Assembly: GCA_045544765.1 (NCBI GenBank)
Contig: JAZPZQ010000022.1
Location: forward strand, 9,837-73,836
DNA from: Candidatus Nanosyncoccus sp.
Lineage (GTDB): Bacteria > Patescibacteriota > Saccharimonadia > Saccharimonadales > Saccharimonadaceae
Direction: 5' to 3'
Length of the DNA: 64,000 bases
Positions 7,202-26,217 of this stretch are shown here, in pieces. Within the stretch, counting starts at the first letter, position 1, and each line of letters opens with the position of its first letter. Position numbers and translations under genes: made by a program. The notes beneath the pieces were generated by a model, which was not told where the DNA came from, did not search any database, and worked only from the letters and a program-made list of their open reading frames with translations.

Positions 7202-7225
7202 GCTTATGATTATAACACAAGTTTT

Positions 7226-9180: not shown

Positions 9181-9892
9181 GTTTATTCTTCTTCAATAGT
9201 TCGGCAACACCAGCCATATTAAAACGGAACTTGAAATTATCTCGGTTGTTGTGAACCTGAAATTCGCCAATCGTCACACCGTCATATTTTACAGTAGTGC
9301 TCTCATTCCACTCTGCCACAGTGCTTTTAGTAAATGAAACTTTACTTTTACTCCAGACTGGGCTACTTGATTTTTCGAATACGACAAATTGAGGATTATT
9401 GGTTGGGTTATCGCCTCTATCTACGACATTATAAAAGTGAACCAAATAATCACAATCAAACATATTCTCCCAGTATAAAGCAAGTAATTCATCAATTCTG
9501 GTCAAAGCGATCTGCTTAAATAAGCGTGCTTTCTCCGCATAAGTCGAAGGAACGGTTTCTATTGATAATGCTTTAGCAAGATGACTATACCAAGTGCTAG
9601 ATGAAGCCTGGCCAATTTTCTGTGGGGCAGCCTTTCCTAGTGCTTGCTTGTTTGTTTTTACCGATAAGGTTTTGCCACCAGAAAGATTAAAATCAACTGC
9701 GTTCTGGCCTTCAGCGATATGCTTGATTGGACTTGGGATATTATAGGAGGCAAAAATACCACCGACAATTGGCTTAATTGATTGGGTTATACTGCTAACG
9801 CCTCTTGAACGATAAGTCGGATTAATACTAACACCAAAGACATCCGCAATTGCAATTTCTGCCGAGACGCCAACTTGCTCATTATTTAACAT
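9167..9892 (-). CDS. Putative type II restriction endonuclease
   Basis: Lies between two MTases; PD-(D/E)xK-like VDF...LSVKTN and GKAAPQKIGQ; SD GAGGAAGG. Confidence 0.6.
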   Translation of the reverse strand: MLNNEQVGVSAEIAIADVFGVSINPTYRSRGVSSITQSIKPIVGGIFASYNIPSPIKHIAEGQNAVDFNLSGGKTLSVKTNKQALGKAAPQKIGQASSSTWYSHLAKALSIETVPSTYAEKARLFKQIALTRIDELLALYWENMFDCDYLVHFYNVVDRGDNPTNNPQFVVFEKSSSPVWSKSKVSFTKSTVAEWNESTTVKYDGVTIGEFQVHNNRDNFKFRFNMAGVAELLKKNKLTLS

Positions 9893-9991
9893 TGAAATTG
9901 TCCTTCCTCATTAAGTACCACTTATTTTAACATATTTTTGAAAAAAGTAAATATAAGCCCAAGTACATGTAATCTGTGGTAGAATATAGAT

Positions 9992-11035
9992 ATGAACTAC
10001 ATTGGCAGCAAGTTATCTTTACTAGATTTTATCGAAAAGTCCGTAGATGAAGTTACTTCAGGCGATTATGCTTCTGTTTGCGATTTATTTGCTGGAACTG
10101 GAGCAGTCGGAAAACACTTCAAAAAGAAGGGCAAAAAGATTGTTTCCAATGATATACAAACATACAGTTATGTCCTAAATCGCCATTATATCGGCAATCA
10201 TAAGCCTCTAGAGTTTAATGGCCTTAAGCAAGAAATTAGCGATCTAGATAAAAGCGATAATAAAATTGCTACTGTTTGCGACTATCTCACGAATATTCCT
10301 GGGGAGGATGGCTTTATTTTTACCAATTATTGCCTCGGTGGCGGTCAAGGAAGACAATATTTTTCCGATGAAAATGGGAGGAAATGTGATGCAATTAGAA
10401 ATACAATCGAAACTTGGTACAAGGTCGACAAGATAAACGAAGATGAATATTACTGTCTTCTTTGCTCTCTTCTTGAGAGTATTGATAAGGTAGCAAACAC
10501 AGCGAGCGTATATGGTGCATTTCTTAAGTCTCTAAAGAAGTCAGCGCAAAAGCCCCTTGAACTTATTCCAGCAGAACTAATCATAAATGAGAATGAGCAT
10601 TTAGTATTTAATGACGATGCGAACAAGATAGCAAGCGAACAATATGTTGATGTCCTATATTTAGATCCACCATATAATCAACGCCAATATGCTACAAACT
10701 ATCATCTGTTGGAAACTATCGCCAAAAATGATAACCCTGAAATTCATGGCAAAACTGGGCTCCGTGAATATAAGAAGCAAAAGTCATTATATTGTTCTCG
10801 CTCTCAAGTCAAAAAAGCATTTTCAGATTTAATAGCAAACGCAAAAGCAAAGTATATCTTCCTAAGCTACAACAACGAAGGGCTTCTTTCTCTAGAAGAC
10901 ATTGAAGAAATCATGGGCAGTCGCGGAGAATATGGCTTTTTCACAAAAGACTATCATCGATTCAAAGCAGACGCGGGCAGGGATTACTCCGCAGATAGAA
11001 CAATCGAATATTTACACTATGTAAAGTGCGCTTAA
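9992..11035 (+). CDS. D12-class N6-adenine DNA methyltransferase (M.NlaIII/FokI-like)
   Basis: MNYIGSK...CDLFAGTGAVG...YLDPPYN. Confidence 0.9.
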   Translation: MNYIGSKLSLLDFIEKSVDEVTSGDYASVCDLFAGTGAVGKHFKKKGKKIVSNDIQTYSYVLNRHYIGNHKPLEFNGLKQEISDLDKSDNKIATVCDYLTNIPGEDGFIFTNYCLGGGQGRQYFSDENGRKCDAIRNTIETWYKVDKINEDEYYCLLCSLLESIDKVANTASVYGAFLKSLKKSAQKPLELIPAELIINENEHLVFNDDANKIASEQYVDVLYLDPPYNQRQYATNYHLLETIAKNDNPEIHGKTGLREYKKQKSLYCSRSQVKKAFSDLIANAKAKYIFLSYNNEGLLSLEDIEEIMGSRGEYGFFTKDYHRFKADAGRDYSADRTIEYLHYVKCA

Positions 11036-11083
11036 ATGTCTTGTTGTGCCGATAAATCTAATTACAGGAACTTCATTTTTTGA

Positions 11084-11550
11084 CATCTTCGTATCTGTAA
11101 AAGTGGTAAAAAAGCTTCAAGATATGGCAAGAATGATGTGTCTAATTTCTTAAGGTCATTCGTCATATGTAAGCATTGTGGCAAAACTATGTCCACTAGT
11201 ATCGTAGGTGGTGAAAGAAACTCATTTAGATTTAGATGTAATACAAAAAGCTGTCCAATACGGAATAAAAGCCCTGCAGGTTCATTATTGCGTGATTACG
11301 CAGTCGAATTTTTGAAAACGCAACTAAATAGACCACACGCTTCGTGAACCATTCGATAAATTGGACGATAATGGCGATAATAATACTTGGCTGGAACTTA
11401 AGTACCTTGATAGGAACCGAAGAAGAGGACAAATTCTGCATAATTAAGTCGCGAATTACGGTCCTTAAACCGCTGTTACAGAGGTGTGATGCGCAGGAGC
11501 TAAATCCATGGAATCCATGGCTCTGGCTGGAGCCGAACTACAAACGCTAG
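11084..11550 (+). pseudogene. Decayed large serine recombinase remnant (zinc-ribbon and C-terminal fragments)
   Basis: Frame of ORF 11138 reads ...NFLRSFVICKHCGKTMST...RFRCNTKSC...DYAVEFL, an LSR Zn-ribbon signature, with no N-terminal catalytic domain. The next frame ends ...PWLWL. Confidence 0.6.
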
Positions 11551-11671
11551 TCTTTGGCGGTTTTGGCGAAAAATAGATGCTTTTACGACCCCTGTAGGGC
11601 CGTTTTTTGACTTTATGCTCGAACCGAGTTGTGACATGAAACATGCGCCAGATGATATAATTGAAGCAAGT

Positions 11672-12451
11672 ATGGCATTCGATTTCAAGAAAGAATATAA
11701 AGAGTTTTATATGCCGAAGAATAAACCGGCGATTATCGAAGTGCCAAAGATAAACTATATCGCCGTTAGAGGCAAAGGCAACCCCAACGAAGAAAACGGA
11801 GATTATCAGAATACTTTAGGCCTACTATATGGCATAGCTTATACGCTAAAAATGAGTTATAAGGGCGATCATAAGATAAATGGGTTCTTTAAGTACGTTG
11901 TACCACCACTAGAGGGCTTTTGGTGGCAAGATGACAAAGACGGCATAGATTACGATCATAAAGAAGATCTAAACTTTATCTCAATTATTCGTTTACCGGA
12001 CTTTGTAACGAAAGCTGATTTTGACTGGGCGATAGAAGAAGCCACCAAAAAGAAAAAACAAGACTTCTCTAGGGTGGAGTTTTTAACTTATGACGAGGGC
12101 TTATGCGTCCAATGTATGCATATTGGGAGCTACGACGACGAACCGGCTACCGTTGAATTGATGCATAAATACATGCAAAATAACGGACACGAACTCGATA
12201 TAACTGATAAAAGATATCACCACGAGATTTATCTAAGCGATCCAAGAAAATGTGACGCAAGCAAGCTTAAAACCGTAATCAGACACCCAATTAAGAAAAG
12301 TGGCTGGTCGGAAGAAGCTTGTAAAAACATGATGGAATTAATAGAAACCGTTAAGAAGATCGAGAAAGAGCAAGCTAAAATGACGCCGGAAGAAAAGAAA
12401 CGCAACGAGTGGGCAGCTTGGGACGGCGACACTATGCTGTTTAAATATTGA
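11672..12451 (+). CDS. GyrI-like small-molecule-binding domain protein
   Basis: MAFDFKKEYKEFY, VPPLEGFWW, HIGSYDDEP, HHEIYLSDPR; ~45-aa extra C-terminal tail. Confidence 0.85.
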   Translation: MAFDFKKEYKEFYMPKNKPAIIEVPKINYIAVRGKGNPNEENGDYQNTLGLLYGIAYTLKMSYKGDHKINGFFKYVVPPLEGFWWQDDKDGIDYDHKEDLNFISIIRLPDFVTKADFDWAIEEATKKKKQDFSRVEFLTYDEGLCVQCMHIGSYDDEPATVELMHKYMQNNGHELDITDKRYHHEIYLSDPRKCDASKLKTVIRHPIKKSGWSEEACKNMMELIETVKKIEKEQAKMTPEEKKRNEWAAWDGDTMLFKY

Positions 12452-12461
12452 TACCGCCTCG

Positions 12462-12932
12462 ATGGCGCAACCTCAAAGAAACGAGGTTATGATGGCAAAA
12501 CGCCGCATATACAAGAAGTCAAGGAATGGCGAGCCTATTAAGGTGACCGCCAGGCAGCTTCATCAACTCTACGTTAAGCACGAAGGTATCCTTACTTCGC
12601 GCGAATATAGCGATCTAAAGAATATGGAGCTGGTAGATTCAAACATTAGAGACGCCAAATGGGCGCTTAGAGAGTTTGATGACGAAACGCTGCTCGGAAC
12701 TTGGGATAAGGAGATGCGCTTTGGCTATGGAAAACGCATTTATATCCATTACGACGGCGAGGACAAGGATAAATACTTCTTCTCTCTCGCCTACATTCCA
12801 CGCGCCCTAAATAACCGCGACGTAAACGAAGCGATTCTGCGCATGTATTTCGTACGACGTTGGACCGTAACGAAACTTTGGCTTTGGGCCGAACCAGTAG
12901 ATATTACACCAAGCTACGGCCGCGAATTCTAG
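12462..12932 (+). CDS. Hypothetical protein
   Basis: 156-aa ORF; likely true start ~12492 after a GAGG SD; no motif recognised. Confidence 0.65.
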   Translation: MAQPQRNEVMMAKRRIYKKSRNGEPIKVTARQLHQLYVKHEGILTSREYSDLKNMELVDSNIRDAKWALREFDDETLLGTWDKEMRFGYGKRIYIHYDGEDKDKYFFSLAYIPRALNNRDVNEAILRMYFVRRWTVTKLWLWAEPVDITPSYGREF

Positions 12933-13150
12933 AAAATAAAGTGTCAGAAAGTCAATAGATAGCATCCACTTGATCACAATCGGACTTTTGGCCTTTTTCG
13001 TGCAGAAAACAGGGATAAAGTTTTTTCTTGACCTGAAATCGCTAAATGTTGTGAAATATGTGCGTGAAAAGCCGGTCGCAGGCGCCGAAAAGAGTGCGTT
13101 TCATGATATAATTAAGCTAAGGATATTTATAAATTTAATGTGGAGATAAC

Positions 13151-14656
13151 ATGATTGTCGGAGACTTACGCAACAAAGTGGATTCCATCTGGGATACGAT
13201 TTGGACCGGTGGTATTACTAACCCGATTACTGCAGTTGAGCAGATTACTTATTTAATGTTCATTAAGCTGCTTGATGACAATCAGCAGAAGGACGAATCG
13301 AAAGCTAATTCCCTCGGTATTCCACTGGAGCGCAAAATCTTCGGAGAAGGCGTCTGTGTAATCTCCGAAAAACCTCGTCTCGAAGCAAATTACGAAGATA
13401 TGCGTTGGCACGTTTTTCATAATTTCGATCCAGAGACTATGTTTAATACCGTAAAGGACTACGTCTTCCCATTCATTAAGACGATCGGCGACTCCACATT
13501 TAGTAAATACATGGATAGCGCAACGTTCCTAATCCCTACACCACTGGTTCTCTCTAAGATTGTAGATGGCATCGATGCCATGGATATGAATAATAAAGAT
13601 ATCATGGGTGATGTCTACGAATATCTTCTTAGTAAAATTGCCGCTTCTGGCCAAAACGGTCAGTTCCGCACTCCGCGCCACATCATCAATATGATCGTGG
13701 AACTCATGCAACCGACACTCAATGATAATATCCTGGATCCAGCTATGGGCAGCGCCGGATTCTTGCTCTCAACTATTCGTTATGTCGGCGAACATCAAGA
13801 AGATGATCTTATGGTGCCAGAAAAGCGCGATTACTACCGCTCTAAGCTTGTTACTGGCTTTGATACCGACCAATCTATGCTTCGTATTGGAGCAATGAAC
13901 TTAATGCTCCACGGTGTCGATAGTCCAAACATCAAATACCAAGATTCGCTTTCAAACGATAATACCGAGCGCGAAGCTTACTCTATGATTATGGCTAACC
14001 CACCATTTGCTGGTAGCCTTTTCCCAGATCAAGTGTCAAAGGATCTTCTCTCACTAGCCAATACGAAGAAAACAGAACTCTTGTTTGTTGCGTTATTTAT
14101 CAAGACACTAAAGATTGGTGGCCGCTGTGCGTCAATCGTCCCGGATGGCGTCTTATTTGGTAGTAGTACGGCCCACAAGGCGCTACGCAAAGAACTTGTC
14201 GAGAATCAGAAGCTTACCGCCGTAATTTCTATGCCTTCGGGTGTATTTAAGCCATATGCAGGCGTTTCTACGGCAATCTTAATCTTCACCAAGACCGATA
14301 CTGGCGGAACCGACAAGGTTTGGTTCTATGATATGAAAGCTGATGGCTTCAGTCTAGATGATAAGCGCGCCGCAGTAAAAGAAAACGATATTCCAGATAT
14401 TATCGAACGCTTCCATAATTTGAATAACGAAGAAGATCGTAGGCGTACCGACCAATCATTCTTTGTACCTAAAGACGAAATCGCAAAGAATGGTTACGAT
14501 CTTTCTATTAATAAGTACAAAGAAGTAGAATACGAGAAAGTCGAATATCCACCAACATCTGAAATTCTTGCCGATATCGAGAAATTAGACAAGGAAGTGG
14601 CCGATAACCTTGCCGAATTAAAGAAATTATTAACCGAAACAAATTCGAATTTGTAG
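13151..14656 (+). CDS. hsdM: Type I R-M methyltransferase subunit
   Basis: GQFRTPRHII, DPAMGSAGF, ANPPF, SINKYKE. Confidence 0.96.
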   Translation: MIVGDLRNKVDSIWDTIWTGGITNPITAVEQITYLMFIKLLDDNQQKDESKANSLGIPLERKIFGEGVCVISEKPRLEANYEDMRWHVFHNFDPETMFNTVKDYVFPFIKTIGDSTFSKYMDSATFLIPTPLVLSKIVDGIDAMDMNNKDIMGDVYEYLLSKIAASGQNGQFRTPRHIINMIVELMQPTLNDNILDPAMGSAGFLLSTIRYVGEHQEDDLMVPEKRDYYRSKLVTGFDTDQSMLRIGAMNLMLHGVDSPNIKYQDSLSNDNTEREAYSMIMANPPFAGSLFPDQVSKDLLSLANTKKTELLFVALFIKTLKIGGRCASIVPDGVLFGSSTAHKALRKELVENQKLTAVISMPSGVFKPYAGVSTAILIFTKTDTGGTDKVWFYDMKADGFSLDDKRAAVKENDIPDIIERFHNLNNEEDRRRTDQSFFVPKDEIAKNGYDLSINKYKEVEYEKVEYPPTSEILADIEKLDKEVADNLAELKKLLTETNSNL

Positions 14657-15799
14657 ATGAGTATGGATAATACAATAAGACTAAAAGATGCATGCAAAAT
14701 TCTAAATGGTTTCGCATTTAAGAGTAGTAAATATGTCGATTCGGGAATTCGGATTATCCGTATAGCAAATGTCCAGAAAGGATACGTTGAAGACGAAAAG
14801 CCAGCATTCTATCCAGACTCCGAAGAACCACTAATTCGCGACTATATGCTTGAAGAAAATGATCTTCTTTTATCGCTTACCGGAAACGTCGGACGTGTTG
14901 CATTGCTAGATAAGAAATGGCTACCGGCCGCACTTAATCAACGTGTCGCTTGTTTGAGAATTAAAGATGACAGAATCATAAAAGACTATTTATACTTCGC
15001 ATTGCTTTCTGATAAATTTGAGAACGATTGTATTAAATCATCAAAAGGCATTGCGCAGAAGAATATGAGTACCGAGTGGTTAAAAGACTACGAAATACCT
15101 CTGCCGAGTGAGCAAAGGCAACGAGAAATTGTCTCTTCACTAAAACATTTATCCGCAATTATCAAAAATAAAACTGAGCAAATTCGACAATTAGACAATC
15201 TCATCAAAGCCCGATTTGTCGAGATGTTCGGCAATGTCGTAGCCAATGATAAAGGATGGCCTACCGAGCCAATATCAAAGGCGGCACCCACAAGCTCACC
15301 AAAAATCAAAAACAACGAAACGGTTTGGCTTCTTAACCTAGATATGGTCGAATCGCAATCTGGCAAGGTGATAAGCAAGCTTATCGTTTCTGAAGACAAA
15401 ATTAACGCCTCTACATGTACTTTTGATGAAAATAATGTTCTCTATTCTAAGCTTCGTCCATATCTAAATAAAGTCGTTTTGCCGGATCAAGAAGGTTATT
15501 GCACTACTGAATTAGTCCCATTAAAGCCAGGCAAAGAACTTACCAGAGAGTTCTTGGCCACATTGCTAAGAAGTGACGCATTCGTGGGCTACATTAATGA
15601 AAAGACCGCCGGCGCGAAAATGCCACGTGTTTCAATGAATATTTTTAGGCAATTCGAATGTATCCTACCACCAATTGCACTGCAACAACAATTTTCAGAA
15701 TTCTATAACCAAGTCGACAAATCAAAATTTGCCGTACAGAAGTCACTCGAAAAGACTCAACAATTATTCGATAGTTTAATGCAGGAGTATTTTGGCTAG
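14657..15799 (+). CDS. hsdS: Type I R-M specificity subunit, expressed allele (TRD1 + TRD2a)
   Basis: Two TRDs, central KARFVEMFG, C-terminal QVDKSKF...DSLMQEYFG; starts immediately after the hsdM stop. Confidence 0.95.
   Translation: MSMDNTIRLKDACKILNGFAFKSSKYVDSGIRIIRIANVQKGYVEDEKPAFYPDSEEPLIRDYMLEENDLLLSLTGNVGRVALLDKKWLPAALNQRVACLRIKDDRIIKDYLYFALLSDKFENDCIKSSKGIAQKNMSTEWLKDYEIPLPSEQRQREIVSSLKHLSAIIKNKTEQIRQLDNLIKARFVEMFGNVVANDKGWPTEPISKAAPTSSPKIKNNETVWLLNLDMVESQSGKVISKLIVSEDKINASTCTFDENNVLYSKLRPYLNKVVLPDQEGYCTTELVPLKPGKELTREFLATLLRSDAFVGYINEKTAGAKMPRVSMNIFRQFECILPPIALQQQFSEFYNQVDKSKFAVQKSLEKTQQLFDSLMQEYFG
15204..15228 (+). repeat. Shufflon repeat A, copy 1
   Basis: TCAAAGCCCGATTTGTCGAGATGTT. 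Exact inverted copy at 17326-17350; 20-bp direct copy at 18631-18650. Confidence 0.92.
15713..15732 (+). repeat. Shufflon repeat B, copy 1
   Basis: GTCGACAAATCAAAATTTGC. Inverted copy within 16819-16850; direct copy within 19132-19163. Confidence 0.92.
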
Positions 15800-15851
15800 A
15801 AAGCATCTCCTTTTGTTAGTGGAGGTTCTAATCTAACAAAAGGAGTTATTA

Positions 15852-16820
15852 ATGGAGGAAACCATTAAATACATTTTGGTGGATATGGACGAATATCTCA
15901 CCGCAAATCAGTCACAAAAACTACAACGCGTACTTGTTTCGCGCTTAACAAAAGAAACGAGATCGATAAATGGCATTTCGAACGACAACTATCTGTCAAT
16001 GTTTCTGAATGCCAAAAAGATAGAAGGATGTTCCGAGCGGACTCTATCCTACTATAAAACTACCGTAGAAAAGCTATTAGACAAAATAGACGACCCAATA
16101 CGCAAAGTAACAACTGATGATATACGGGATTACCTTGCTAACTATCAAGGCTTAAATGGTTGTAGCAAAACGACAATCGATAATATCCGCCGCAATATCT
16201 CGAGCTTCTTTACTTGGCTTGAGGAAGAAGACTATATCATTAAAAGCCCAATGCGTAGGATCCATAAAATCAAAACCACAAAAACCGTGAAAGAAATAAT
16301 CTCGGACGAAGAAATCGAAAAAATGCGCGACAGATGCAGTAGCTTACGCGACCTGGCAATTATTGACCTTCTCTACTCGACCGGAATTAGAATTGGTGAG
16401 CTCGTAAGACTTAATATTGACGACATAGACTTTGAAGAACGCGAATGCATAGTTTTCGGCAAAGGCGACAAAGAGCGGCGCGTATATTTCGATGCTAAAA
16501 CCAAGATACACCTAATGGGCTACATAAATAGCCGCTCTGACGCAAATCCTGCCCTTTTTGTGACGCTTGACGCGCCTTACGATAGATTACAGATATCTGG
16601 CGTAGAAATCCGTCTGAGGCGCTTAGGACGCGAATTAGGCATAAATAAAGTTCACCCTCATAAATTCCGCCGGACTATGGCGACACGTGCAATCGACAAA
16701 GGAATGCCGATCGAGCAGGTTCAGAAACTACTAGGACACTCTCAGATCGATACGACCATGCATTACGCGATCGTAAATCAAACAAACGTAAAAGTCGCAC
16801 ACCGTAAGTTCATCGCTTAG
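15852..16820 (+). CDS. Tyrosine recombinase (shufflon invertase/integrase)
   Basis: STGIRIGEL, GKGDKER, HPHKFRR, LGH...TTMHY catalytic residues; sits between hsdS cassettes. Confidence 0.95.
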   Translation: MEETIKYILVDMDEYLTANQSQKLQRVLVSRLTKETRSINGISNDNYLSMFLNAKKIEGCSERTLSYYKTTVEKLLDKIDDPIRKVTTDDIRDYLANYQGLNGCSKTTIDNIRRNISSFFTWLEEEDYIIKSPMRRIHKIKTTKTVKEIISDEEIEKMRDRCSSLRDLAIIDLLYSTGIRIGELVRLNIDDIDFEERECIVFGKGDKERRVYFDAKTKIHLMGYINSRSDANPALFVTLDAPYDRLQISGVEIRLRRLGRELGINKVHPHKFRRTMATRAIDKGMPIEQVQKLLGHSQIDTTMHYAIVNQTNVKVAHRKFIA

Positions 16821-16850
16821 CGCAAATTTTGATTTGTCGACCTGAGCAAC
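16819..16850 (-). repeat. Shufflon repeat B, copy 2 (inverted)
   Basis: 32-bp exact reverse complement of 19132-19163; its 20-bp core matches 15713-15732. Confidence 0.92.
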
Positions 16851-17515
16851 AAAGGCGGCGAACACGTCAATGCTCGCTTTATCGGGGACTGGAAGTTTAA
16901 CCTTATCGAGCATATATCGAGTTATCTGGTTAATTGTTGTGGTTCCTGTAGATATTTGCGAACGAAATTCTGGCAGCTGAAAATAAGTCATGAGATATGG
17001 GTAATAATCGCTTCGTACAATCATCATGAACGCGCCGAAGCTCATTTGTTCCTGAAGGTCGGGAATGAGTGCAACTTTCCCGACAAGCTTAGCACTACCG
17101 TTCCTTGAGCACATCAGAATATCATTTTTCTTTACCATCTTTTTGTCGCCGATGTCGCATTTTACGCGGACAATGTCATTAAGATCTAACCGCATGCTTT
17201 GTATGTTGCTTGAACGCAAAACAATAGTTCCGTCATTTGACACGTCTGTCGGTTTATAAGTTAGCCCGTTCCAATATTCGGCTATGTCTGAAAGTGGTTT
17301 AATTGGGTATGTTTTTGAGTCGTTAAACATCTCGACAAATCGGGCTTTGACTAACTCATCTAACTGAATTAATTCTTTGTTTCTATCGGAGATTATGGAC
17401 TCGATTTTTCGCAAAATCATGCAGGCGCGCTTTTGCCTCTCTATATCTATCCATTCGATTTCGTAGTTGCTTAGATACAAATCGGTTTTAAGATTGTGGA
17501 GACCTGTTGTTTTTT
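16822..17515 (-). pseudogene. hsdS: Silent inverted hsdS cassette (TRD2b plus truncated tail of an alternative TRD1)
   Basis: ...KTTGLHNLKTDLYLSNYEIE...KARFVEMF...QVDKSKF; no intact start and no proper C-terminal tail. Confidence 0.85.
17326..17350 (-). repeat. Shufflon repeat A, copy 2 (inverted)
   Basis: AACATCTCGACAAATCGGGCTTTGA is the reverse complement of 15204-15228. Confidence 0.92.
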
Positions 17516-17558
17516 TTGTGAATAAATGTTATAACATATTTAACAATAAGGAGGATTT

Positions 17559-18527
17559 ATGAATTATAAAAAAATAGTAGTTGCTGGTGGTGGAGTTTTA
17601 GGTAGTCAAATAGCCTTTCAATCAGCATATTGTGGATATGATGTAACAATATGGTTAAGAAGTGAAGATAGTAAAACAAGAACACAACCTAAGCTAGATG
17701 CATTAAAAAAAGATTATATTGAAACCATCGAGTCTTTAGACACTAATGATGAGAATAGTTGGGCAAGAGGAATATCTGACATTGATAGTTTTAATAAAGA
17801 GGAATGTTTAAAAAAAGTTGATCTTGCCTATAACAATATTAAATTAGAAGTTGATATGAAAGAAGCAGTGAAAGATGCAGATTTGGTAATTGAATCTATG
17901 GCTGAGATTAAAGATGAAAAAATTAAATTTTATCAAACTTTAGCTCCATTGTTAGAAGAAAAAACGGTTATTGTAACTAACTCTTCTACTCTATTACCAT
18001 CTATGTTTGCTAAATATACAGGAAGACCCGAAAAATATTTATCACTTCATTTTGCAAACACAATATGGGTTAAAAATACAGCCGAACTAATGTCTCATGA
18101 TGGAACCAACAAAAAATATTTTGATGAAATTATGGAATTTGCAACAAGTATTCGAATGCTACCTCTTCCAGTATTAAAAGAAAAATCAGGATATCTATTA
18201 AATTCTATGCTTGTACCATTTTTATTAAGTGGTATGGATTTATTAACGAATGGAATATCTGATGCTCAAAGTATTGATATTGCCTGGAAAAGAGGAACAG
18301 GAGCTCCAAAAGGACCATTTGAAATTATTGATACTGTAGGATTGACAACCGCAAAAAATATAGTTGAACAATATCAAAAAGTTCCTGGATTAATGAGTCC
18401 ATTATTAAAGAAAATGATGCTACCATATAATTATAAAGGCATGCTTAATATGTTAAATAAATACATTGACGAAGGTAAATTAGGAAAATCAACAGGCGAA
18501 GGTTTTTATAAATATGACAAATCATAA
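17559..18527 (+). CDS. 3-hydroxyacyl-CoA dehydrogenase, AT-rich foreign gene
   Basis: GGGVLGSQIA Rossmann motif, DLVIESMAE, TNSSTL, LHFAN, GPFEIIDTVGL, GKLGKSTGEGFY; strong GGAGG SD. Confidence 0.92.
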   Translation: MNYKKIVVAGGGVLGSQIAFQSAYCGYDVTIWLRSEDSKTRTQPKLDALKKDYIETIESLDTNDENSWARGISDIDSFNKEECLKKVDLAYNNIKLEVDMKEAVKDADLVIESMAEIKDEKIKFYQTLAPLLEEKTVIVTNSSTLLPSMFAKYTGRPEKYLSLHFANTIWVKNTAELMSHDGTNKKYFDEIMEFATSIRMLPLPVLKEKSGYLLNSMLVPFLLSGMDLLTNGISDAQSIDIAWKRGTGAPKGPFEIIDTVGLTTAKNIVEQYQKVPGLMSPLLKKMMLPYNYKGMLNMLNKYIDEGKLGKSTGEGFYKYDKS

Positions 18528-18630
18528 TCATTTGCAAATGTCATAATGTTGTGTTATATTTTATTTAGTAATTGAGAAAATCGTGAGTTCATAGATTTGT
18601 GCCGATTTTTCGTAAACACGTTAAATTGAG

Positions 18631-19163
18631 GCCCGATTTGTCGAGATGTTTTATGATACTGATAGCGAACGAGTAAAGATAGCTGAATTAGTTGAGCAGA
18701 AAATTCCGACTGCTAAAAAGGATTTTGAGAGCGATGCAGAGATTAAGTATATTGATATCTCATCTATCGACAATAAACGCAATATAATGACTGGATTTAC
18801 GAAATACAAAATGTCGGACGCACCTTCTAGGGCGCAACAGCATGTACAGTTTGGCGATATCCTCATATCTACTGTAAGACCAAATTTAAAGAATGTTGCC
18901 ATGGTTTCTCTTGATAGCGATAATCTGGTCGCTTCTAGCGGATTTTGTGTCTTGAGATCTAAAAAATGCACTCCAGAGTTTCTAATGGCTATAGTTTGTT
19001 CCGATAAATTTACGGACGCAATGATTAATGTTGTTACAGGCGCAAACTACCCCGCAATAAAGAACTCAGACGTATTGAATTACTGCGTTCCATTACCGAG
19101 TGAAGAACAACAAAGGAATTTTTCAAACTTCGTTGCTCAGGTCGACAAATCAAAATTTGCGCT
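18631..19163 (+). pseudogene. hsdS: Silent TRD2c cassette bounded by repeat A (18631-18650) and repeat B (19132-19163)
   Basis: MFYDTD...STVRPNL...STG-like SSGF...GANYPAI...QVDKSKF; lacks TRD1. Forms the first ~170 aa of ORF 18646..22356. Confidence 0.85.
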
Positions 19164-19221
19164 TCAAAAATCCATCATAAGCCTTATGAATTTATGCAGT
19201 TTATGGTATAATATGAGTAAT

Positions 19222-22200
19222 ATGTTTTCGAGCGGCTATATGGGAAGACTCGAGCTAATTCGAGCACTTCCTACGAAGGAAGAGAAAGCTAAGGCGTCAC
19301 GCCTAGTTCTTCGTGAAGTACTCGAACAAATCTTTCCAGAGAAATCAGCTAAGAAAAAGAAAAAATACTCTCTTCTTGAGCTGATTGACTGCTCCCCAAT
19401 AAGAAACTATGTAAACGACGATCAGGTTACCGAATCGCTTCACTTTATTCGTATTATAGGTATTCGTGCTGAACATAATCAGCCAGTTCGTGAGAAAGAT
19501 GTAAAAATTGCCGTAGATAACCTGGAATACTTCATAAAGTTCTTGGACAACAAGAATAACACTTATGAAGAGCCAACGAAGTCTCCGGAATATTTCTCGG
19601 AAGCTGAAACTAGGGCGGCATATATCGACATGTATCTACGCGAAGCCGGATGGGATGTACTAACCCAAAAAGGCGTAGCCCTTCCTGGTAAAGCCGGTAT
19701 AGAAATAGAAGTCGGCAATATGCCTAACAACGCAGGTGTTGGCTACTGCGATTATGTACTTTACGACCGCGCCGGCAAGCCACTTGCTGTTGTCGAAGCG
19801 AAAAAGACTTCAAAGGATCCGCAAATTGGCCGTCATCAGGCAGACCTTTATGCGGAATCGCTGAAAGAAAAGTTTGGTTATAAACCAGTAATCTACTACA
19901 CAAATGGCTACGAGACCCATGTTATTGATGGCGTTTATCCTGATCGGAAAGTAACAGCATTCCACACTCTTGAAGAACTTGAGCGTATGATTCAGCGCCG
20001 AAATCGCGGCAATATAACTGATATGGCCGCAAAAGACGAAATCGCTGGCCGTCCATACCAAAAGATGGCCCTTACGCGCATGTGTGAGCGCTTTAACGCG
20101 CATCATCGCCGCGGACTAGTAGTTATGGCTACCGGCACCGGTAAAACGCGTGTATCAATCGCTTTGACGGATATTTTGGCAAGAAATGGCTGGATCAAGA
20201 ATGTCCTATTCTTAGCCGATCGAACTTCTCTCGTTAAGCAGGCAAAACGTAACTACGCAAAGCTTCTGCCAGATATGACAATCTGCGAGCTTTCTGAAGG
20301 CGGAAACGCAAACAAAGACATGAATGCTCGCTTGATGTTCTGTACTTATCAAACGATGATCAACTATATTGACGCCGAAGACAAAGATTTCTCGACTGGA
20401 CGTTTTGACTTGATTATCGTCGATGAGGCACACCGCTCAATCTTTAACCGTTACGCTTCGATTTTTGCCTATTTCGATAGCTTACTTGTCGGCTTTACCG
20501 CTACACCACGCGACGAAGTCGGAAGTAGCACATATGGAATATTCGAGTGTGAATCCGGAGAGCCAACTTTTGATTATCCACTAGAAGATGCAATTAAAGA
20601 GCATTATCTTGTAGGCTATGAAGTTATTAACCGTCATTCCCGTATTATGACGCAAGGTATTAAGCGCGAAGAACTGGACGAAGATCAACTCGAACAGTTG
20701 GATGATTTTCTTGAAGGCGACCGCGAAACGCCAGACTTAACAATTCCGGCAAATGCAATTTTCCGCTCTATTTTCAATGAAGATACTTGTCGCAGCGTAC
20801 TTGAAGACTTAATGGAAAAAGGCATCCGCGTAAATGGCGGTGAAACTATCGGAAAAACAATCATTTTTGCATACAACCACAAACACGCCGAAATGATCGT
20901 TAATGAATTCAAGAAGCTTTACCCCCATCTTCCATCAAATACCTGTCAGTTGGTCGACTATTCCGTAAACTACGCCGAAGATCTAGTAGTTAAGTTTGAC
21001 ACCGATGATGAGTTTAGAATTGCTGTTTCTGTCGATATGCTCGACACCGGTATCGATGTTCCTGCCGTTTCCAACCTCATGTTCTTCAAGCCAGTGCGTT
21101 CAAAGATTAAGTTTGTCCAGATGATTGGTCGCGGTACGCGTCTCTGCCCAGACTTGTTTGGTCCAGGCAACGACAAAAAGAAGTTCCTTATCTTCGATTA
21201 TTGCGATAACTTTGAATATTTCCAGGTAGAACATAACGAAGTAGTTAGCGCCGGCGATAAAGTTTCACTATCGCAAAGAATCTTCGCACTTCGATCAGAA
21301 ATCGCATATAGCCTCCAAGATTTCGAAAGTCAAGAAGACGAATTTCTCAGTAGCTATCGCGACAAAACCGTCCGCATACTCCTCGATATTGTTAAGGATT
21401 TAAAGAAAAGTACCAACCGTATTGCTGTTCGCCAAAATCTAAAATACGTCGATAAATATAACAACGACAAAGCATGGCTTGCTCTAACACCTGTAAATGT
21501 TCATGAACTTAAGACTTTTGTCGCACCACTTATTGAAGGCGGCTCTGACTCCGATTTCAAGGCTCTATCATTCGATATTAGAATGATGAGGATCCAGAGA
21601 GCAATATTGAAAAATACCCCAGCTTATGCGACTGCCGACGTAAAGAAAGTACGCGAAATAGCGCAATACCTTCTTCAAAACAAGATGACTATTCCGCAGG
21701 TTGAAGCCAAGAAAGATGATCTTAAAGAGCTATATGATGAATCTAGCTGGAATGAGCCACAAGTAAAAGACCTAGAGCGTCTACGCGATTCCGTACGCGA
21801 GCTAATTAAGTACATTACTGGCGACGAACTCAGATTAATCGATATCGACGTAAGCGACGAACTTGTAGATCCAGACTTCCAACCAGACGGTACAGTTATC
21901 GATATTCGCACATACAAGGAACGTGTAATTGATTACTTAACGAAGAATGGCGACGACATAACCATTGAAAAGATTCGCAATCTTGAAAAACTTGATCAGA
22001 AAGATGCTGAAAAGCTCAAACAATTGCTTTGGTTTGATTTAGGCTCCGAAGACGAATATAACGAGAATGCAAATGGTAAAAGCCTTGCTGCATTCGTACG
22101 TAGCTTGATAGGTATAGACCAAGATGCTGTAAATGAAAAGTTTGGCGAGTACCTTAATGCTCATCAACTTAATTCTAAACAGCAAGAATTCATTAATTTT

Positions 22201-22356
22201 ATCGTCAAATATGTCCAAAAGAACGGCGACATTGAACTTGCTGACCTACTAAAGACGGATCCGTTCAAATCCATCGACTGGAATGAACTATTTGGTGGCA
22301 ACGTAGAGCCAATCAAATACACTGTATCAGTACTCCATGATGCAATTGCCGCATAA
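19222..22356 (+). CDS. hsdR: Type I R-M restriction subunit (probable start 19222; frame open from 18646)
   Basis: DYVLY...VEAKK nuclease, MATGTGKT, DEAH, SVDMLDTG, QMIGRGTR. TGGTATAAT at 19204-19212 sits 9 nt before ATG 19222. Confidence 0.93.
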   Translation: MFSSGYMGRLELIRALPTKEEKAKASRLVLREVLEQIFPEKSAKKKKKYSLLELIDCSPIRNYVNDDQVTESLHFIRIIGIRAEHNQPVREKDVKIAVDNLEYFIKFLDNKNNTYEEPTKSPEYFSEAETRAAYIDMYLREAGWDVLTQKGVALPGKAGIEIEVGNMPNNAGVGYCDYVLYDRAGKPLAVVEAKKTSKDPQIGRHQADLYAESLKEKFGYKPVIYYTNGYETHVIDGVYPDRKVTAFHTLEELERMIQRRNRGNITDMAAKDEIAGRPYQKMALTRMCERFNAHHRRGLVVMATGTGKTRVSIALTDILARNGWIKNVLFLADRTSLVKQAKRNYAKLLPDMTICELSEGGNANKDMNARLMFCTYQTMINYIDAEDKDFSTGRFDLIIVDEAHRSIFNRYASIFAYFDSLLVGFTATPRDEVGSSTYGIFECESGEPTFDYPLEDAIKEHYLVGYEVINRHSRIMTQGIKREELDEDQLEQLDDFLEGDRETPDLTIPANAIFRSIFNEDTCRSVLEDLMEKGIRVNGGETIGKTIIFAYNHKHAEMIVNEFKKLYPHLPSNTCQLVDYSVNYAEDLVVKFDTDDEFRIAVSVDMLDTGIDVPAVSNLMFFKPVRSKIKFVQMIGRGTRLCPDLFGPGNDKKKFLIFDYCDNFEYFQVEHNEVVSAGDKVSLSQRIFALRSEIAYSLQDFESQEDEFLSSYRDKTVRILLDIVKDLKKSTNRIAVRQNLKYVDKYNNDKAWLALTPVNVHELKTFVAPLIEGGSDSDFKALSFDIRMMRIQRAILKNTPAYATADVKKVREIAQYLLQNKMTIPQVEAKKDDLKELYDESSWNEPQVKDLERLRDSVRELIKYITGDELRLIDIDVSDELVDPDFQPDGTVIDIRTYKERVIDYLTKNGDDITIEKIRNLEKLDQKDAEKLKQLLWFDLGSEDEYNENANGKSLAAFVRSLIGIDQDAVNEKFGEYLNAHQLNSKQQEFINFIVKYVQKNGDIELADLLKTDPFKSIDWNELFGGNVEPIKYTVSVLHDAIAA

Positions 22357-22367
22357 AAAAGACCACC

Positions 22368-22718
22368 CTACTGGGCGGCTTTTTGATACGCTTCTACAGC
22401 TTCGCGAACTCCGCATTCTGGACAAATCTCCGTCTCGTTATCTACGCGAGATAAAGCCGGATGCTCCGTAAACTCTTTTTTGCATTTCGGACAACACTGA
22501 AGCTCTAGGATCTTGTAAGCCATAGTTTTAGGTAGAGATTCAAGCTCCTCTCGCAGAATATCTTCGTCATCGTAACGCTTAGCGTCAACTAAAAACGAAG
22601 AATATTGCTCGTTCGACTTAAGATCCACACCGTTGTTGTCATATTTGCCGACATAATACCAAATATCTTTATCGTGAATTACGCCGATAACGTATTCACA
22701 TATACTAACATTACTCAT
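22368..22718 (-). CDS. Small protein with C-terminal zinc ribbon (mobile-element type)
   Basis: CPKC...PALSRVDNETEICPECG; SD AAGGAG. Confidence 0.75.
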   Translation of the reverse strand: MSNVSICEYVIGVIHDKDIWYYVGKYDNNGVDLKSNEQYSSFLVDAKRYDDEDILREELESLPKTMAYKILELQCCPKCKKEFTEHPALSRVDNETEICPECGVREAVEAYQKAAQ

Positions 22719-22734
22719 ATAAATACTCCTTAAT

Positions 22735-22839
22735 AACCCTGCAAGGTCTTTTCTAACACCGACCGTTAAAGAGCAACTTTAGATTAAAGTTAATATTCGG
22801 TTGTGGGTTAGTTAAAATTGCGGCTCCCTTTGCAGGGTT
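22735..22839 (-). ncRNA. Candidate structured 5' leader RNA
   Basis: Three nested helices (see findings) between a TTGCAA/TAAATT promoter and the SD. Confidence 0.4.
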
Positions 22840-22926
22840 GTCCAATTTAACCTTACTTTGGGACATTTTGCAAGTCATTCCACACCTTACGACCCCAAGA
22901 AGATATGGTATAATATAGACAACTAA

Positions 22927-23715
22927 TTGGAAGTTGTAATGCCTGAAAATGTAACAGAATTAGTAACCGACTTAATTGAGCTTCATCGTGAAGGAGTCGA
23001 CTTTGCTAATTTGTTCCATGAAACTTCCGAACTCTCGAAATCGGGCAAAGACGACCAATCCATCTTAGAGCACATCGACTACGAGCTTATTTATCTCAGC
23101 GACAAACACGAAGATATAACCAACCCTAAAGAAAAAGCCAAAAGGTACTACGACGACTGGGGTTTCAAATGCCTAGATCTACTCTGTAATATCGTGCCGC
23201 AACGATTCATCTTCAAATATATGAATTCAAAAGCCCAAATTCCGAATGATGCAGATTACTACGAAAAAATCGCATTAAGTTTTAATGCTGAGACGAAGGC
23301 ACTAGCCGAGATAATCCCAGAAATTGAGCGCGAATACGAAGACGGGCACAAACAGCTCTTCTATGACGACGATAAAGATATTAAGGTGAACTACGATCCA
23401 AAAACTCGCACGATCCACGTCGGCAATAAAGTAGTGCGTTTCCGCGAAGACGCGCCATTCACTCCTGCTCTTTGCGAAATTATATTTAAGGATCCAACAA
23501 AACTTTACGAATTACGCGATTTTCAGACCGTCTGGGATGATTTGTATGACTATATAGGTAATGAACGCCCTTCGGACTGGCACCGCGTCTACGAGGTCTT
23601 AAAACGCCTTAACGAACGCATTCGCAATATCGCCGGAATCGACGATTTATTTGAACTAAATACAAAATCAGTTAGAATTAATAATAGTTTTTTGAATGAT
23701 AGACAAAGAAAATAA
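22927..23715 (+). CDS. Hypothetical protein with probable C-terminal OmpR-like winged helix
   Basis: Beta-strands YDPKTRTIHVG, recognition helix RVYEVLKRLNERI, terminal wing. ATG at 22939 is the likelier start. Confidence 0.6.
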   Translation: MEVVMPENVTELVTDLIELHREGVDFANLFHETSELSKSGKDDQSILEHIDYELIYLSDKHEDITNPKEKAKRYYDDWGFKCLDLLCNIVPQRFIFKYMNSKAQIPNDADYYEKIALSFNAETKALAEIIPEIEREYEDGHKQLFYDDDKDIKVNYDPKTRTIHVGNKVVRFREDAPFTPALCEIIFKDPTKLYELRDFQTVWDDLYDYIGNERPSDWHRVYEVLKRLNERIRNIAGIDDLFELNTKSVRINNSFLNDRQRK

Positions 23716-24460
23716 GAAATGCAGACTCTGCGACGCGCCTTTAACTGCAAGTAATAAGAGAAGGTCTCATGCTCTTACAAAGGCATCATTTTTTGATCCG
23801 CCGACACTTAAGCCTGGCGAACATCTCCTACTACTATCGCCATACTGTCCAAACGAAGTAGACGCAGGACATCATACGTGGGAATACGCATTATGTGCAG
23901 ACTGCGAGTTAAAACTTGCTAAATGGGAACAAGAAAGAGAACGATTCTTGTCGTCCGCAGACAGGCCGACGAAAACTCCAGAAGAGCAGCCATGTGTTTT
24001 TGCCGAAGATTTTAATCAAGAATATATCGTTTTAGCCTGTCTTTCGGATTTGTATAGATGTCATATATTCACAGATTCGGCCTATAGTGGTGTAAATTTA
24101 GGCGAAAAACATTCAAGTAAAATAGCATCAATTTTAAATCAAGGAAAAATAGATAATTATAATGACTACCCTATAGTTTTCAGGCGTTTTAACAATAAAA
24201 ATAATATAGCAGATGAGGCTTTCCAGGTGCCTTATAAAGTTCGCTTCGAAAACCGCATTGTATGCTATGAGGTTATAGCACCTAGAGGCTGGACTTGGAT
24301 GATAAAAGTTGATAGCCAATCGAGCGAATTATTTGAAAAATACGCTCTTGGATCGTCTTCTAAAATTCATATTTTTAATGCTGGGGACATACAAGAAAAT
24401 AGGAACCGAAGAATCTTTGGCGGATTTATATCTGCTGCCTTGAGAGGTCTTGGTAAATAG
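23696..24460 (+). CDS. Zn-binding HNH-like putative nuclease
   Basis: CRLC...SHAL...CADCE arrangement typical of His-Me finger proteins; overlaps the upstream gene. Confidence 0.5.
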   Translation: MIDKENKKCRLCDAPLTASNKRRSHALTKASFFDPPTLKPGEHLLLLSPYCPNEVDAGHHTWEYALCADCELKLAKWEQERERFLSSADRPTKTPEEQPCVFAEDFNQEYIVLACLSDLYRCHIFTDSAYSGVNLGEKHSSKIASILNQGKIDNYNDYPIVFRRFNNKNNIADEAFQVPYKVRFENRIVCYEVIAPRGWTWMIKVDSQSSELFEKYALGSSSKIHIFNAGDIQENRNRRIFGGFISAALRGLGK

Positions 24461-24530
24461 CGCAATATTATCGCAATAATAACGCTGAACTCTCTTTTTG
24501 TATCCTTGGAATATGGAATGAAGAGGTAAT

Positions 24531-24647
24531 ATAACGTATCAGAAAGACAAGAAACTGGAGCAACAAGCACTCGTAAAGTTTCTAGAAATATTAATCGATA
24601 TAGACAAGCGCGAACATGTCGTTAATAAGGATGACGACAATGAATAG
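24531..24647 (+). CDS. Possible 38-aa helical microprotein (non-canonical ATA start)
   Basis: ITYQKDKKLEQQALVKFLEILIDIDKREHVVNKDDDNE*; GAGGT 3 nt before ATA; stop overlaps the SpoVG-like start. Confidence 0.35.
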   Translation: MTYQKDKKLEQQALVKFLEILIDIDKREHVVNKDDDNE

Positions 24648-26119: not shown

Positions 26120-26217
26120 CGCTTATGTAGGGTGGTTCTTTACGGCTATTTTAGTTGCAAATAGCCCAGCTCCAAAGGTCCATTTATGATATGGACTTAT
26201 GAAAGGTTTAGGGTATT

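Follow-up and report, generated by a model that had tools for sequence, protein, structure and literature searches.

A putatively switchable type I restriction-modification locus with three exchangeable specificity cassettes in a Saccharibacterium

Introduction

The closest described system to the locus considered here is the tvr (SpnIV) type I restriction-modification (R-M) locus of Streptococcus pneumoniae (Kwun et al. 2018, PMC6265443), in which shuffling by the tyrosine recombinase TvrR via excision and reintegration was shown experimentally. The tvr locus contains two repeat types with a common core, and a hairpin attenuator before tvrR which was verified experimentally (PMC6265443). The present study concerns a type I R-M locus in a stretch of 64,000 nucleotides (nt) of contig JAZPZQ010000022.1, assigned to Candidatus Nanosyncoccus sp. 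and referred to below as the window, in which a recombinase gene lies among three alternative versions of the second target recognition domain (TRD2) of the specificity subunit HsdS. An earlier note, made from the sequence alone, had described this locus as a shufflon analogous to the pneumococcal ivr and tvr loci, and its author was not aware of a characterised example in bacteria of the Candidate Phyla Radiation (CPR).

Recombination inside hsdS is reportedly also a feature of the hsd loci of Mycoplasma pulmonis, where HvsR is said to act on vip and hrs sites within hsdS and to reassort target recognition domains by inversion. Engineered cassette exchange employs heterospecific lox or FRT sites, which have common arms and different spacers, and proceeds through two events with no crossing between the two kinds of site (A and B).

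Invertase-positive hsdS loci have been surveyed by Huang et al. 2020 (PMC7672463), who found them in 10 phyla, including Candidatus Saccharibacteria (two REBASE loci, assigned to clade 2, that of TvrR). The survey described mixed hsdS orientations and pointed out that inversions would often yield defective HsdS, with ON/OFF switching as the likely consequence, while the clade 2 loci were left without experiments and their sites are not described in its main text (PMC7672463). The earlier statement that such a locus is uncharacterised in CPR bacteria therefore holds in part: our literature search found no experimental work on a locus of this type in Saccharibacteria, but loci of the kind had already been listed there.

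Results

Organisation of the locus

An open reading frame (ORF) scan combined with domain searches identified a complete type I R-M operon in the window, comprising hsdM, hsdS, a recombinase gene, two silent TRD2 cassettes and hsdR (Table 1). We consider it probable that this is a switchable locus in which three exchangeable TRD2 cassettes undergo cassette exchange by one recombinase acting at class-specific sites. This reading is carried by the anatomy of the locus, the intact recombinase, the conservation of the sites at the DNA level, the natural occurrence of three HsdS forms, and a rearrangement at B and H sites (defined below) at zero divergence in a relative; judging from its sequence, the system would be expected to be active in the window's own strain as well.

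The three TRD2s, termed TRD2a, TRD2b and TRD2c, are pairwise at most 27% identical. In agreement with the earlier note, each is bracketed by a repeat A and a repeat B with the recombinase gene inside the array, every one of these elements being recovered where the note had placed it. Repeat A (GCCCGATTTGTCGAGATGTT, 20 nt) occurs exactly at 15209-15228 (+), 17326-17345 (-) and 18631-18650 (+), and repeat B (CA[A/G]GTCGACAAATCAAAATTTGC) at 15710-15732 (+), 16822-16844 (-) and 19138-19160 (+), the second and third B sites forming a longer inverted repeat of 36 nt at 97% identity (16819-16854 / 19128-19163). With the sites numbered in order along the window, A1/A2, A2/A3, B1/B2 and B2/B3 are inverted pairs inside hsdS coding sequence and A1/A3 and B1/B3 are direct pairs, giving the order A+ B+ REC B- A- A+ B+, where REC is the recombinase gene. 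The claim that only one correct C-terminal tail exists was borne out by a tblastn search of the 64-kb window, which returned one canonical copy and no second one, only a decayed remnant being present after B3.

Recombination sites and their classes

Every complete site fits the pattern CAAA(G/T)-N4-ATTTGT. This pattern, CAAAK-N4-ATTTGT, has seven matches in the window, all of them within the locus, where 0.22 would be expected (none of 100 shuffles gave as many as 7), so that the cluster of sites is not attributable to chance; related loci totalling 1.75 Mb contain 403 matches. The arms CAAA(G/T) and ATTTGT(C)GA are common to all sites and the central bases are class-specific. Class A, at the boundary of the first target recognition domain (TRD1) and TRD2, has the centre CCCG; class B, at the boundary of TRD2 and the tail, has TTTG/CAAA (TTTG on the reverse strand); and class H, at the hsdM stop and hsdS start, is a perfect palindrome with the centre TCGA or CCGG. 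A 10-mer, GATTTGTCGA, is common to A and the reverse complement of B. The H site of the window codes for the final residues of hsdM together with its stop codon and lies directly 5' of the hsdS start. In the relatives L001, L004, L005, L083 and L084, H sites bound every hsdS copy, including the space between head-to-head copies; since a pattern scan found no second H site in the window, TRD1 is fixed here. The third A site is a half-site, reading TTGAGG-CCCG-ATTTGT as against TCAAAG-CCCG-ATTTGT in a complete A site, and is not matched by the full site pattern.

Codon-level conservation of class A was surveyed over 56 loci, across phyla. In class A sites located via the peptide alone, the Arg codon is CGA in 92 of 94 cases (background 14%), the Val codon GTC in 71 of 90 (background 11%) and the Glu codon GAG in 89 of 94 (background 36%), while the class B codons GTC-GAC-AAA-TCA are invariant (23/23). 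On this codon-level conservation A and B are to be regarded as DNA recombination sites and not solely as conserved protein motifs. From the common arms and class-specific centres we infer that one recombinase serves H, A and B and that recombination takes place only between sites of the same class.

Two variations on the H site were observed among the relatives. Locus L006 (7730-12370) has the layout B- A- H A+ B+ tail REC H, with the next gene, hsdM, on the other strand; the two H sites of L006, which are non-palindromic (centre TCGG/CCGA) and inverted, flank an [hsdS-tail-recombinase] module that could flip towards or away from hsdM, a possible ON/OFF inverton assembled in the OFF orientation. 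In L004 (8660-8837, 12055-12230) and L084 (7031-7203) the last ~170 nt of hsdM are duplicated in inverted orientation beyond a silent hsdS, with arms of 62-80 nt at 94-97% identity that lengthen the H site into a long inverted repeat.

Predicted rearrangements

The consequences of the site geometry were explored by simulating all inversions between inverted sites of the same class. The simulation reached 24 states, in all of which the site order is constant. Twelve of these, four per TRD2, encode an HsdS that is complete and ends in the canonical tail, in line with the three specificities predicted by the earlier note, and the simulation likewise agreed with its proposal that inversion between the inverted B site and B3 exchanges TRD2b and TRD2c. 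In the remaining 12 states the [tail-hairpin-recombinase] segment is flipped and hsdS reads into the recombinase gene in antisense for 30 residues, ending in ...ALSDELTVCDFYVCLIYDRVMHGRIDLRVS; every single-inversion state that involves A1 or B1 carries this recombinase-antisense tail. The combination TRD1+2b+tail was reached after at least two inversions and TRD1+2c+tail after at least three. The claim that switching needs two inversions is thus adequate to the inversion route for TRD2b, but the direct pairs would also allow excision and reintegration.

In the mechanism which we propose, one XerA-like recombinase would act on short sites embedded in the hsdS reading frame, with A pairing with A only and B with B only, so that a TRD2 flanked by A and B would constitute a cassette that can be exchanged, in a natural version of recombinase-mediated cassette exchange. 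The starting state would be that of the window, with TRD2a expressed, TRD2b stored inverted, TRD2c stored in direct orientation beside hsdR, and TRD1 fixed. Inversion at A1xA2 and then at B1xB2 would swap TRD2a and TRD2b, inversion at B2xB3 would swap TRD2b and TRD2c, and excision via A1/A3 or B1/B3 with re-entry via the other class could swap TRD2a and TRD2c, although steps using the half-site A3 may be inefficient. An odd number of A1xA2 or B1xB2 inversions would leave the module of tail, hairpin and recombinase flipped, and the resulting state with the antisense tail probably represents an OFF or impaired HsdS. The predicted outcome is three alternative bipartite m6A and restriction specificities, plus possible OFF states, within one lineage.

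Exchanges seen in relatives and public data

The strongest evidence for exchange is provided by three assemblies (L168, L169 and L170) with neighbouring ENA accession numbers, probably from one batch. At the amino acid (aa) level their strain is 95% identical to the window in HsdM, 93% in the recombinase, 97% in HsdR, 100% in TRD2a and 94% in TRD2b. The assemblies have segments of 2255, 1094 and 679 nt in common at 100% identity and one of 831 nt at 99.9%, and these are joined differently exactly at B and H, the flipped tail-recombinase state included. The order in L169 is hsdM-H-TRD1-A-2a-B-rec(-)-X(-)-tail(-)-B(-)-2b(-)-A(-)-TRD1'(-)-H-TRD1..., that in L170 is ...A(-)-TRD1'(-)-H-TRD1-A-2a-B-tail-X(+), and in L168 an identical H-TRD1-A-2a-B-rec(-) block is joined to a different hsdS and to hsdR. 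Since segments joined at sites of 16-23 bp are free of point divergence, this rearrangement argues for site-specific recombination rather than slow inter-strain exchange. In L169 the inverted TRD1' (4717-4834) runs via a single H site back into the TRD1 that follows hsdM (730-847; 118 nt, 100%), and L170, from another sample, has the same TRD1'-H-TRD1 junction, which may reflect the presence of another copy of TRD1 or, alternatively, the closure point of a circle that had been excised.

A protein search of public metagenomes recovered all three of the predicted full-length forms, TRD1+2a (P0001), TRD1+2b (P0019) and TRD1+2c (P0010), each with the canonical tail. P0010 (locus L081) matches TRD1 at 99% aa and 99.2% nt identity and TRD2c at 99% aa, and P0019 (locus L082) matches TRD1 at 99% and TRD2b at 94%. 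In both loci TRD1 is 99% identical to the window at the nt level whereas the adjacent recombinase gene is only 84% identical, which indicates mosaic breakpoints at A and B. The window's TRD1+2a allele was also encountered in other positions, namely in slot 3, beside hsdR, of L005 (95% nt identity over 1094 nt) and in slot 2 of L168, inverted beside the recombinase. A contig of run X1 joins the 3' end of the recombinase gene through B to an inverted TRD2c; it belongs to a different strain, and an in situ inversion of the window was ruled out as its origin because its TRD2c is preceded by a normal central region.

The flipped state is real, as L083 is assembled with an hsdM-linked hsdS bearing the antisense tail and a second, complete hsdS bearing the canonical one. 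An hsdM-linked hsdS with the alternative tail was found only in L083 and L169; the notion that all alternative-tail HsdS proteins are flipped expressed genes was discarded, most of them being slot-2 silent copies (P0003 in L168, P0033 in L171-L180).

The recombinase and its hairpin

The recombinase gene is intact and all catalytic residues are present: full-length alignment to Pyrococcus abyssi XerA (4A8E) showed conservation of R, K, HxxR, H and Y (GIRIGE, GKGDKER, HKFRR, LGHS, MHY), and the protein scores 260.6 bits against NCBIfam NF040815 (cutoff 220). Its family returned more than 575 matches in the genome collection and 592 in the metagenome collection, and the best 80 loci from each scan were taken for locus comparison. 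Among these, relatives outside the Saccharibacteria group are 63-72% identical; most belong to Lachnospiraceae and other Clostridia, and some to Veillonella, Akkermansia and other groups. A and B occupy the same hsdS positions across the loci of the family. Where the flanking sequence of a relative sufficed for comparison, the layout is direct (A+ B+ REC A+ B+) in 39 loci from outside the Saccharibacteria subclade, while an inverted B- A- cassette follows the recombinase in all five loci of the subclade and in the window, the full window order A+ B+ REC B- A- A+ B+ being present in two of these five (L001 and L005).

In the 52 nt that separate the hsdS stop from the recombinase start, a hairpin with a minimum free energy (MFE) of -25.6 kcal/mol (z = -4.0; equalled by 0 of 200 shuffles) sequesters the AAAGGAG ribosome-binding site of the recombinase by base pairing. 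A hairpin with an MFE of -12 kcal/mol or lower is found in the same place in 80% of 154 related loci, compared with 16% of shuffles; the ribosome-binding site or start codon is paired in 118 of the 154, and compensatory changes are evident, for instance in L006. By hiding the ribosome-binding site, this hairpin probably keeps switching rare.

In the 60 nt 5' of the recombinase start, L008-L013 and other Firmicutes loci outside the Saccharibacteria group have a hairpin of different sequence (GATGTTGGTAC...GTACCAACATGG), which engages the actual start codon in pairing and holds the ribosome-binding site GAAAGGAG in its loop, the structure thus being conserved and the sequence replaced. Extra genes occur between the hsdS tail and the recombinase in some relatives, at the position of Phd-Doc in tvr: L014 (9033-9955) encodes a DUF3990 protein and a 153-aa partner without an assigned family, and L169 (2845-3588) and L170 encode a 247-aa protein without a Pfam match.

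A captured dehydrogenase gene and erosion of the locus

Between cassettes 2 and 3 lies a 3-hydroxyacyl-CoA dehydrogenase gene (17559-18527; Pfam 3HCDH_N and 3HCDH; NCBIfam NF006143, 360 bits) on a foreign segment which, by the geometry of the sites, would be carried along whenever B2xB3 or A2xA3 inversion takes place. In L001 and L005, A2 and A3 are instead separated by two head-to-head TRD1s and an H site. Next to the segment, window positions 17319-17517 are 95.5% nt identical to the expressed hsdS of L005, the coiled-coil region being 98% identical at aa level. Among the closest relatives of the foreign segment is L163 (96% aa and 93.7% nt identity), where the gene adjoins a tRNA, and relatives of the dehydrogenase at 88% aa identity occur in Bacilli metagenome-assembled genomes (MAGs) within a conjugative element (PrgI, TraG-like).

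The homology with L163 stops inside the centre of A3 (...TTGAGGCCC|C in L163 versus ...TTGAGGCCC|GATTTGTCGAG in the window), which is the junction to be expected after crossover of an A site with a pseudo-site. It is therefore conceivable that the dehydrogenase gene was captured by such a crossover, a suggestion kept at the level of a hypothesis by the left junction, which has no matching half-site. The possibility that a circle bearing the dehydrogenase had simply inserted at an A site was rejected, the left junction (~17512-17518) lying in the TRD1 remnant and lacking an A left arm.

In runs X2, X18, X25 and X26 the dehydrogenase segment (17558-18634) is 5-20 times deeper than the neighbouring R-M genes, indicating that it also resides in other, more abundant genomes. 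A contig of run X2 joins 18634 back to 17558 (1077 back) and could represent a tandem or circular form of the 1.08-kb unit in another genome; the 96%-identical dehydrogenase cluster P0121 has 475 member sequences.

Feature coordinates and genomic context

Table 1. Features of the type I R-M locus, with positions in the window
Feature	Position	Strand	Support or remarks
hsdM, methyltransferase subunit, 501 aa	13151-14656	+	Pfam N6_Mtase (PF02384) 4e-68, HsdM_N (PF12161) 4e-15
H site ACAAATTCGAATTTGTAG	14639-14656	palindrome	site pattern matches both strands
Expressed hsdS, 380 aa	14657-15799	+	ORF; Pfam Methylase_S (PF01420), two stretches
TRD1 of expressed hsdS	14657-15208	+	first of the two TRDs
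A1 site, complete, CAAAG-CCCG-ATTTGTCGAGATGTT, protein KARFVEMF	15205-15228	+	repeat search, pattern match, codon-level conservation over 56 loci
TRD2a, active cassette, 160 aa	15229-15709	+	
B1 site, protein QVDKSKF; reverse complement GCAAAT-TTTG-ATTTGTCGAC	15710-15732	+	repeat search, pattern match, codon conservation
Canonical C-terminal tail AVQKSLEKTQQLFDSLMQEYFG	15733-15799	+	tblastn match 15728-15796
Hairpin, 13-bp perfect lower stem CUCCUUUUGUUAG/CUAACAAAAGGAG	15807-15845	+	between hsdS tail and recombinase
XerA-like tyrosine recombinase, 322 aa	15852-16820	+	Pfam Phage_integrase 5e-35, SAM-like N-domain
Inverted cassette ORF (partial hsdS)	16731-17480	-	ORF scan; Methylase_S
B2 site, inverted, abuts recombinase stop codon	16819-16854	-	36 nt, 97% with B3; 23 nt, 96% with B1; pattern match
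Silent cassette TRD2b, 160 aa	16845-17325	-	Methylase_S 3e-5
A2 site, inverted, complete	17326-17349	-	repeat search, pattern match
Remnant of once full-length inverted hsdS: central coiled-coil region and end of lost TRD1	17350-17517	-	
Captured foreign segment	17512-18637	+	carries the 3-hydroxyacyl-CoA dehydrogenase gene
A3 half-site	18631-18650	+	centre and right arm intact (GCCCGATTTGTCGAGATGTT), left arm TTGAGG replacing TCAAAG
Silent cassette TRD2c, 162 aa	18651-19137	+	Methylase_S 4e-7 at N-terminus of ORF 18646-22356
B3 site, complete	19128-19163	+	degenerate tail remnant (ALQKSIISLM...) 3' of B3
Extended -10 element TGGTATAAT	19204-19212	+	sequence inspection
hsdR; start 19213, 19222 or 19240	19213-22356	+	Pfam ResIII 2.5e-43, Helicase_C, HSDR_N, EcoEI_R_C

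The extended -10 element TGGTATAAT is likely to be the promoter of hsdR and to operate independently of the state of the shufflon; a TGnTATAAT motif is found 3' of B3 in L001 as in the window. Although TRD2c and hsdR are in frame with one another, functional continuity between them was ruled out by this motif in both loci and by a stop after the third cassette in L001, and the in-frame continuity is incidental. Against the NCBIfam type I endonuclease models, hsdR gave matches below the equivalog cutoffs.

The recombinase of the window is 99% identical to that of the Ca. Nanosyncoccus MAG L001 and 93% identical to that of the complete genome of Ca. Minimicrobia vallesae (L004), and the flanks of the window outside the R-M genes match the L001 contig at 70-92% nt identity. 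These matches identify the host as a Saccharibacterium (CPR/Patescibacteria), in keeping with what the earlier note had assumed. The metagenome runs that contain window sequence are from ruminant gut and manure; for the L004 locus a run search gave no match, the highest share of words being 0.21.

The R-M locus is situated within an island of ~19.5 kb (window 8392-27924) whose GC skew is opposite to that of its flanks. The island also carries two more DNA methyltransferases (N6_N4_Mtase, 8392-9180, and a D12-class enzyme, 9992-11035), a GyrI-like gene, several ORFs without an assigned family, a zinc-ribbon fragment of a serine recombinase (11138-11347) and a large serine recombinase (26218-27924), the end of whose ORF overlaps a tRNA-Gln (27786-27860, minus strand). 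Window positions 5916-8178 and 24455-27860 correspond to 15428-17687 and 11962-15368 of L001, where the genes of the window's left flank adjoin the island's right end, tRNA-Gln included, in the opposite relative orientation. The island has thus either been inverted in one genome relative to the other or been inserted in the reverse direction. The conserved neighbours of the R-M genes, which have no assigned family, are a 156-aa ORF upstream of hsdM (12462-12932), a zinc-ribbon protein (22368-22718) and two ORFs at 22927-24460; a 154-aa gene, similar in size to the 156-aa ORF, precedes hsdM in L171-L180.

Discussion

Several observations weigh against an active switch of the kind proposed here. 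The third A site is a half-site, the third cassette is followed by a decayed tail only, and a foreign gene replaces the TRD1 parts of cassettes 2 and 3 plus their H site, so that the locus is, on its sequence, partly degraded relative to L001 and L005. No heterogeneity was seen in reads, though runs X19 and X20 gave only 5 and 16 raw reads on the locus, too shallow a coverage for mixtures of arrangements; the window's strain reaches only ~2-3x depth in run X18, the Logan contigs (X1, X2, X3, X15, X18, X25, X26, X30) are mixtures of related strains at 2-130x depth, and in run X72, which holds L005, at ~8x depth, contigs break at the repeats for trivial reasons. Loci encoding the slot-2 protein P0033 are arranged identically in the 10 places shown among 24 contigs, and either some alleles of this type are stable across samples or the exact-protein look-up selects one state. 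The heterospecificity and the 4-nt centre are read from sequence only, and tyrosine recombinases usually have overlap regions of 6-8 bp; the TvrR-clade placement of the window recombinase is taken solely from the assignment of Saccharibacteria loci to clade 2 by Huang et al. 2020. The erosion, the lack of detected heterogeneity in reads and the uniform P0033 loci are what a frozen relic would display, that is, cassettes and repeats left from a horizontally acquired ancestral shufflon whose arrangement is now fixed in this strain, strain diversity arising from transfer and from homologous recombination at conserved hsdS segments; the mosaics L081 and L082, with their diverged backbones, also fit such inter-strain exchange. 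We consider this explanation unlikely, as the recombinase and the regulatory hairpin are both intact, A1, A2, B1, B2 and B3 are perfect full sites, and the sites are conserved at synonymous positions across phyla. Furthermore, L168-L170 differ in their B and H joints with 0 mismatches over kilobases, and repeats of 18-23 bp are too short for efficient RecA-dependent recombination.

It is improbable that switching proceeds mainly through excision of circles and their reintegration via the direct pairs A1/A3 and B1/B3 (and H in relatives), with the inverted cassette as a by-product, although this is the mode of TvrR (PMC6265443), only direct repeats are found in most relatives outside the Saccharibacteria subclade, including the 39 loci with the order A+ B+ REC A+ B+, and the junction of TRD1'(-) via H into TRD1(+) in L169 and L170 resembles that of a circle. 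In the window and in all five classifiable loci of the Saccharibacteria subclade, the recombinase is immediately followed by the inverted B- A- cassette, and L169 and L170 differ from one another by inversion of the tail-X(-recombinase) module between B sites; in the window, moreover, A1xA3 recombination would rely on the defective A3, and by its geometry excision would lose the recombinase and the sole tail and leave hsdS in frame with hsdR. The inversion and circle modes are not mutually exclusive. An artefact of assembly or binning, whereby a chimeric contig driven by repeats or a mis-binned Firmicute locus would simulate a shufflon that no CPR bacterium possesses, is very improbable indeed: short repeats do break short-read assemblies and the recombinase is ~70% identical to Lachnospiraceae proteins, but the repeats in question (20-36 nt) are shorter than reads, the order A+ B+ REC B- A- A+ B+ recurs in the independent MAGs L001 and L005, the complete genome of Ca. 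Minimicrobia vallesae (L004) has A+ B+ REC B- A-, and the flanks of the window match a Ca. Nanosyncoccus contig (L001) outside the R-M genes.

Beyond cassette exchange at class-specific sites, which we favour, a more far-reaching account of the locus and its relatives is offered tentatively. It is possible, though doubtful as a whole, that three heterospecific site classes (H, A and B) served by one recombinase constitute a natural hsdS cassette-exchange system; that Saccharibacteria have rewired a tvr-like excision-reintegration system to inversion; that the sole tail, travelling with the recombinase, serves two converging hsdS genes as an ON/OFF toggle; and that the foreign gene was captured through recombination of an A site with a chromosomal pseudo-site.

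Saccharibacteria live as obligate epibionts and have genomes of ~0.7-1 Mb, and the retention of a 9-kb switchable restriction system in a mobile island suggests that pressure from phages and foreign DNA, or epigenetic diversification, matters in such reduced cells. Methods for manipulating Patescibacteria genetically are now in development, and variable type I specificities stand in their way; knowledge of the three TRD2 alternatives and of the sites may help in the design of methylation-matched DNA. The compact site grammar of a very widespread hsdS-associated recombinase family also makes natural cassette exchange directly testable.

With regard to known systems, the locus is a partly eroded example of a known and widespread kind. 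What its sequence would add to the literature is the three-class site grammar, the toggle formed by tail and recombinase, the lineage switch from direct to inverted repeats, and the captured cargo gene. The analogy with ivr and tvr drawn by the earlier note proved closest for tvr. Both loci have the order hsdM, TRD sequences, a central tyrosine recombinase, further TRD sequences and hsdR; both have a midpoint repeat (~18-20 bp) and a tail-end repeat with a common core of ~10-11 bp; both have a hairpin just upstream of the recombinase gene, its function in the window being presumptive; and in both, the absence of a 5' repeat immobilises the TRD adjacent to hsdM. The differences are that the tvr repeats are all direct and yield excised circles, whereas the cassette beside the recombinase in the window is inverted and inversions are expected; that in the window the module of tail and recombinase would itself flip; that tvr has the Phd-Doc genes (tvrAT), which the window lacks upstream of its recombinase; that the core GATTTGTCGA of the window is in opposite relative orientation in A and B; and that relatives of the window locus possess a third site class, H.

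The resemblance to ivr/cod (SpnIII, CreX/PsrA; PMC4948785, PMC6620402) is smaller, and consists of an inverted silent partial hsdS, a locus-encoded tyrosine recombinase and alternative specificities arising from inversions at repeats inside hsdS. A single inversion completes hsdS in ivr but is insufficient in the window, where the sole tail lies outside the cassettes and two steps are needed, with intermediates that carry a foreign tail; the gene order also differs, and the ivr recombinase belongs to clade 1 (Huang et al. 2020). The M. pulmonis loci differ in having complete hsdS copies, and HvsR is assigned to clade 6 in Huang et al. Cassette exchange with lox or FRT sites is an analogy of logic only, spacer-dependent specificity in the window being presumed. 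The clade 2 'epigenetic invertons' resemble the locus in having several hsdS genes in mixed orientations and, presumably, a TvrR-clade recombinase (PMC7672463), and what has been worked out for the window beyond that survey comprises the three site classes, the logic of cassette exchange, the natural recombinant products and the cargo gene.

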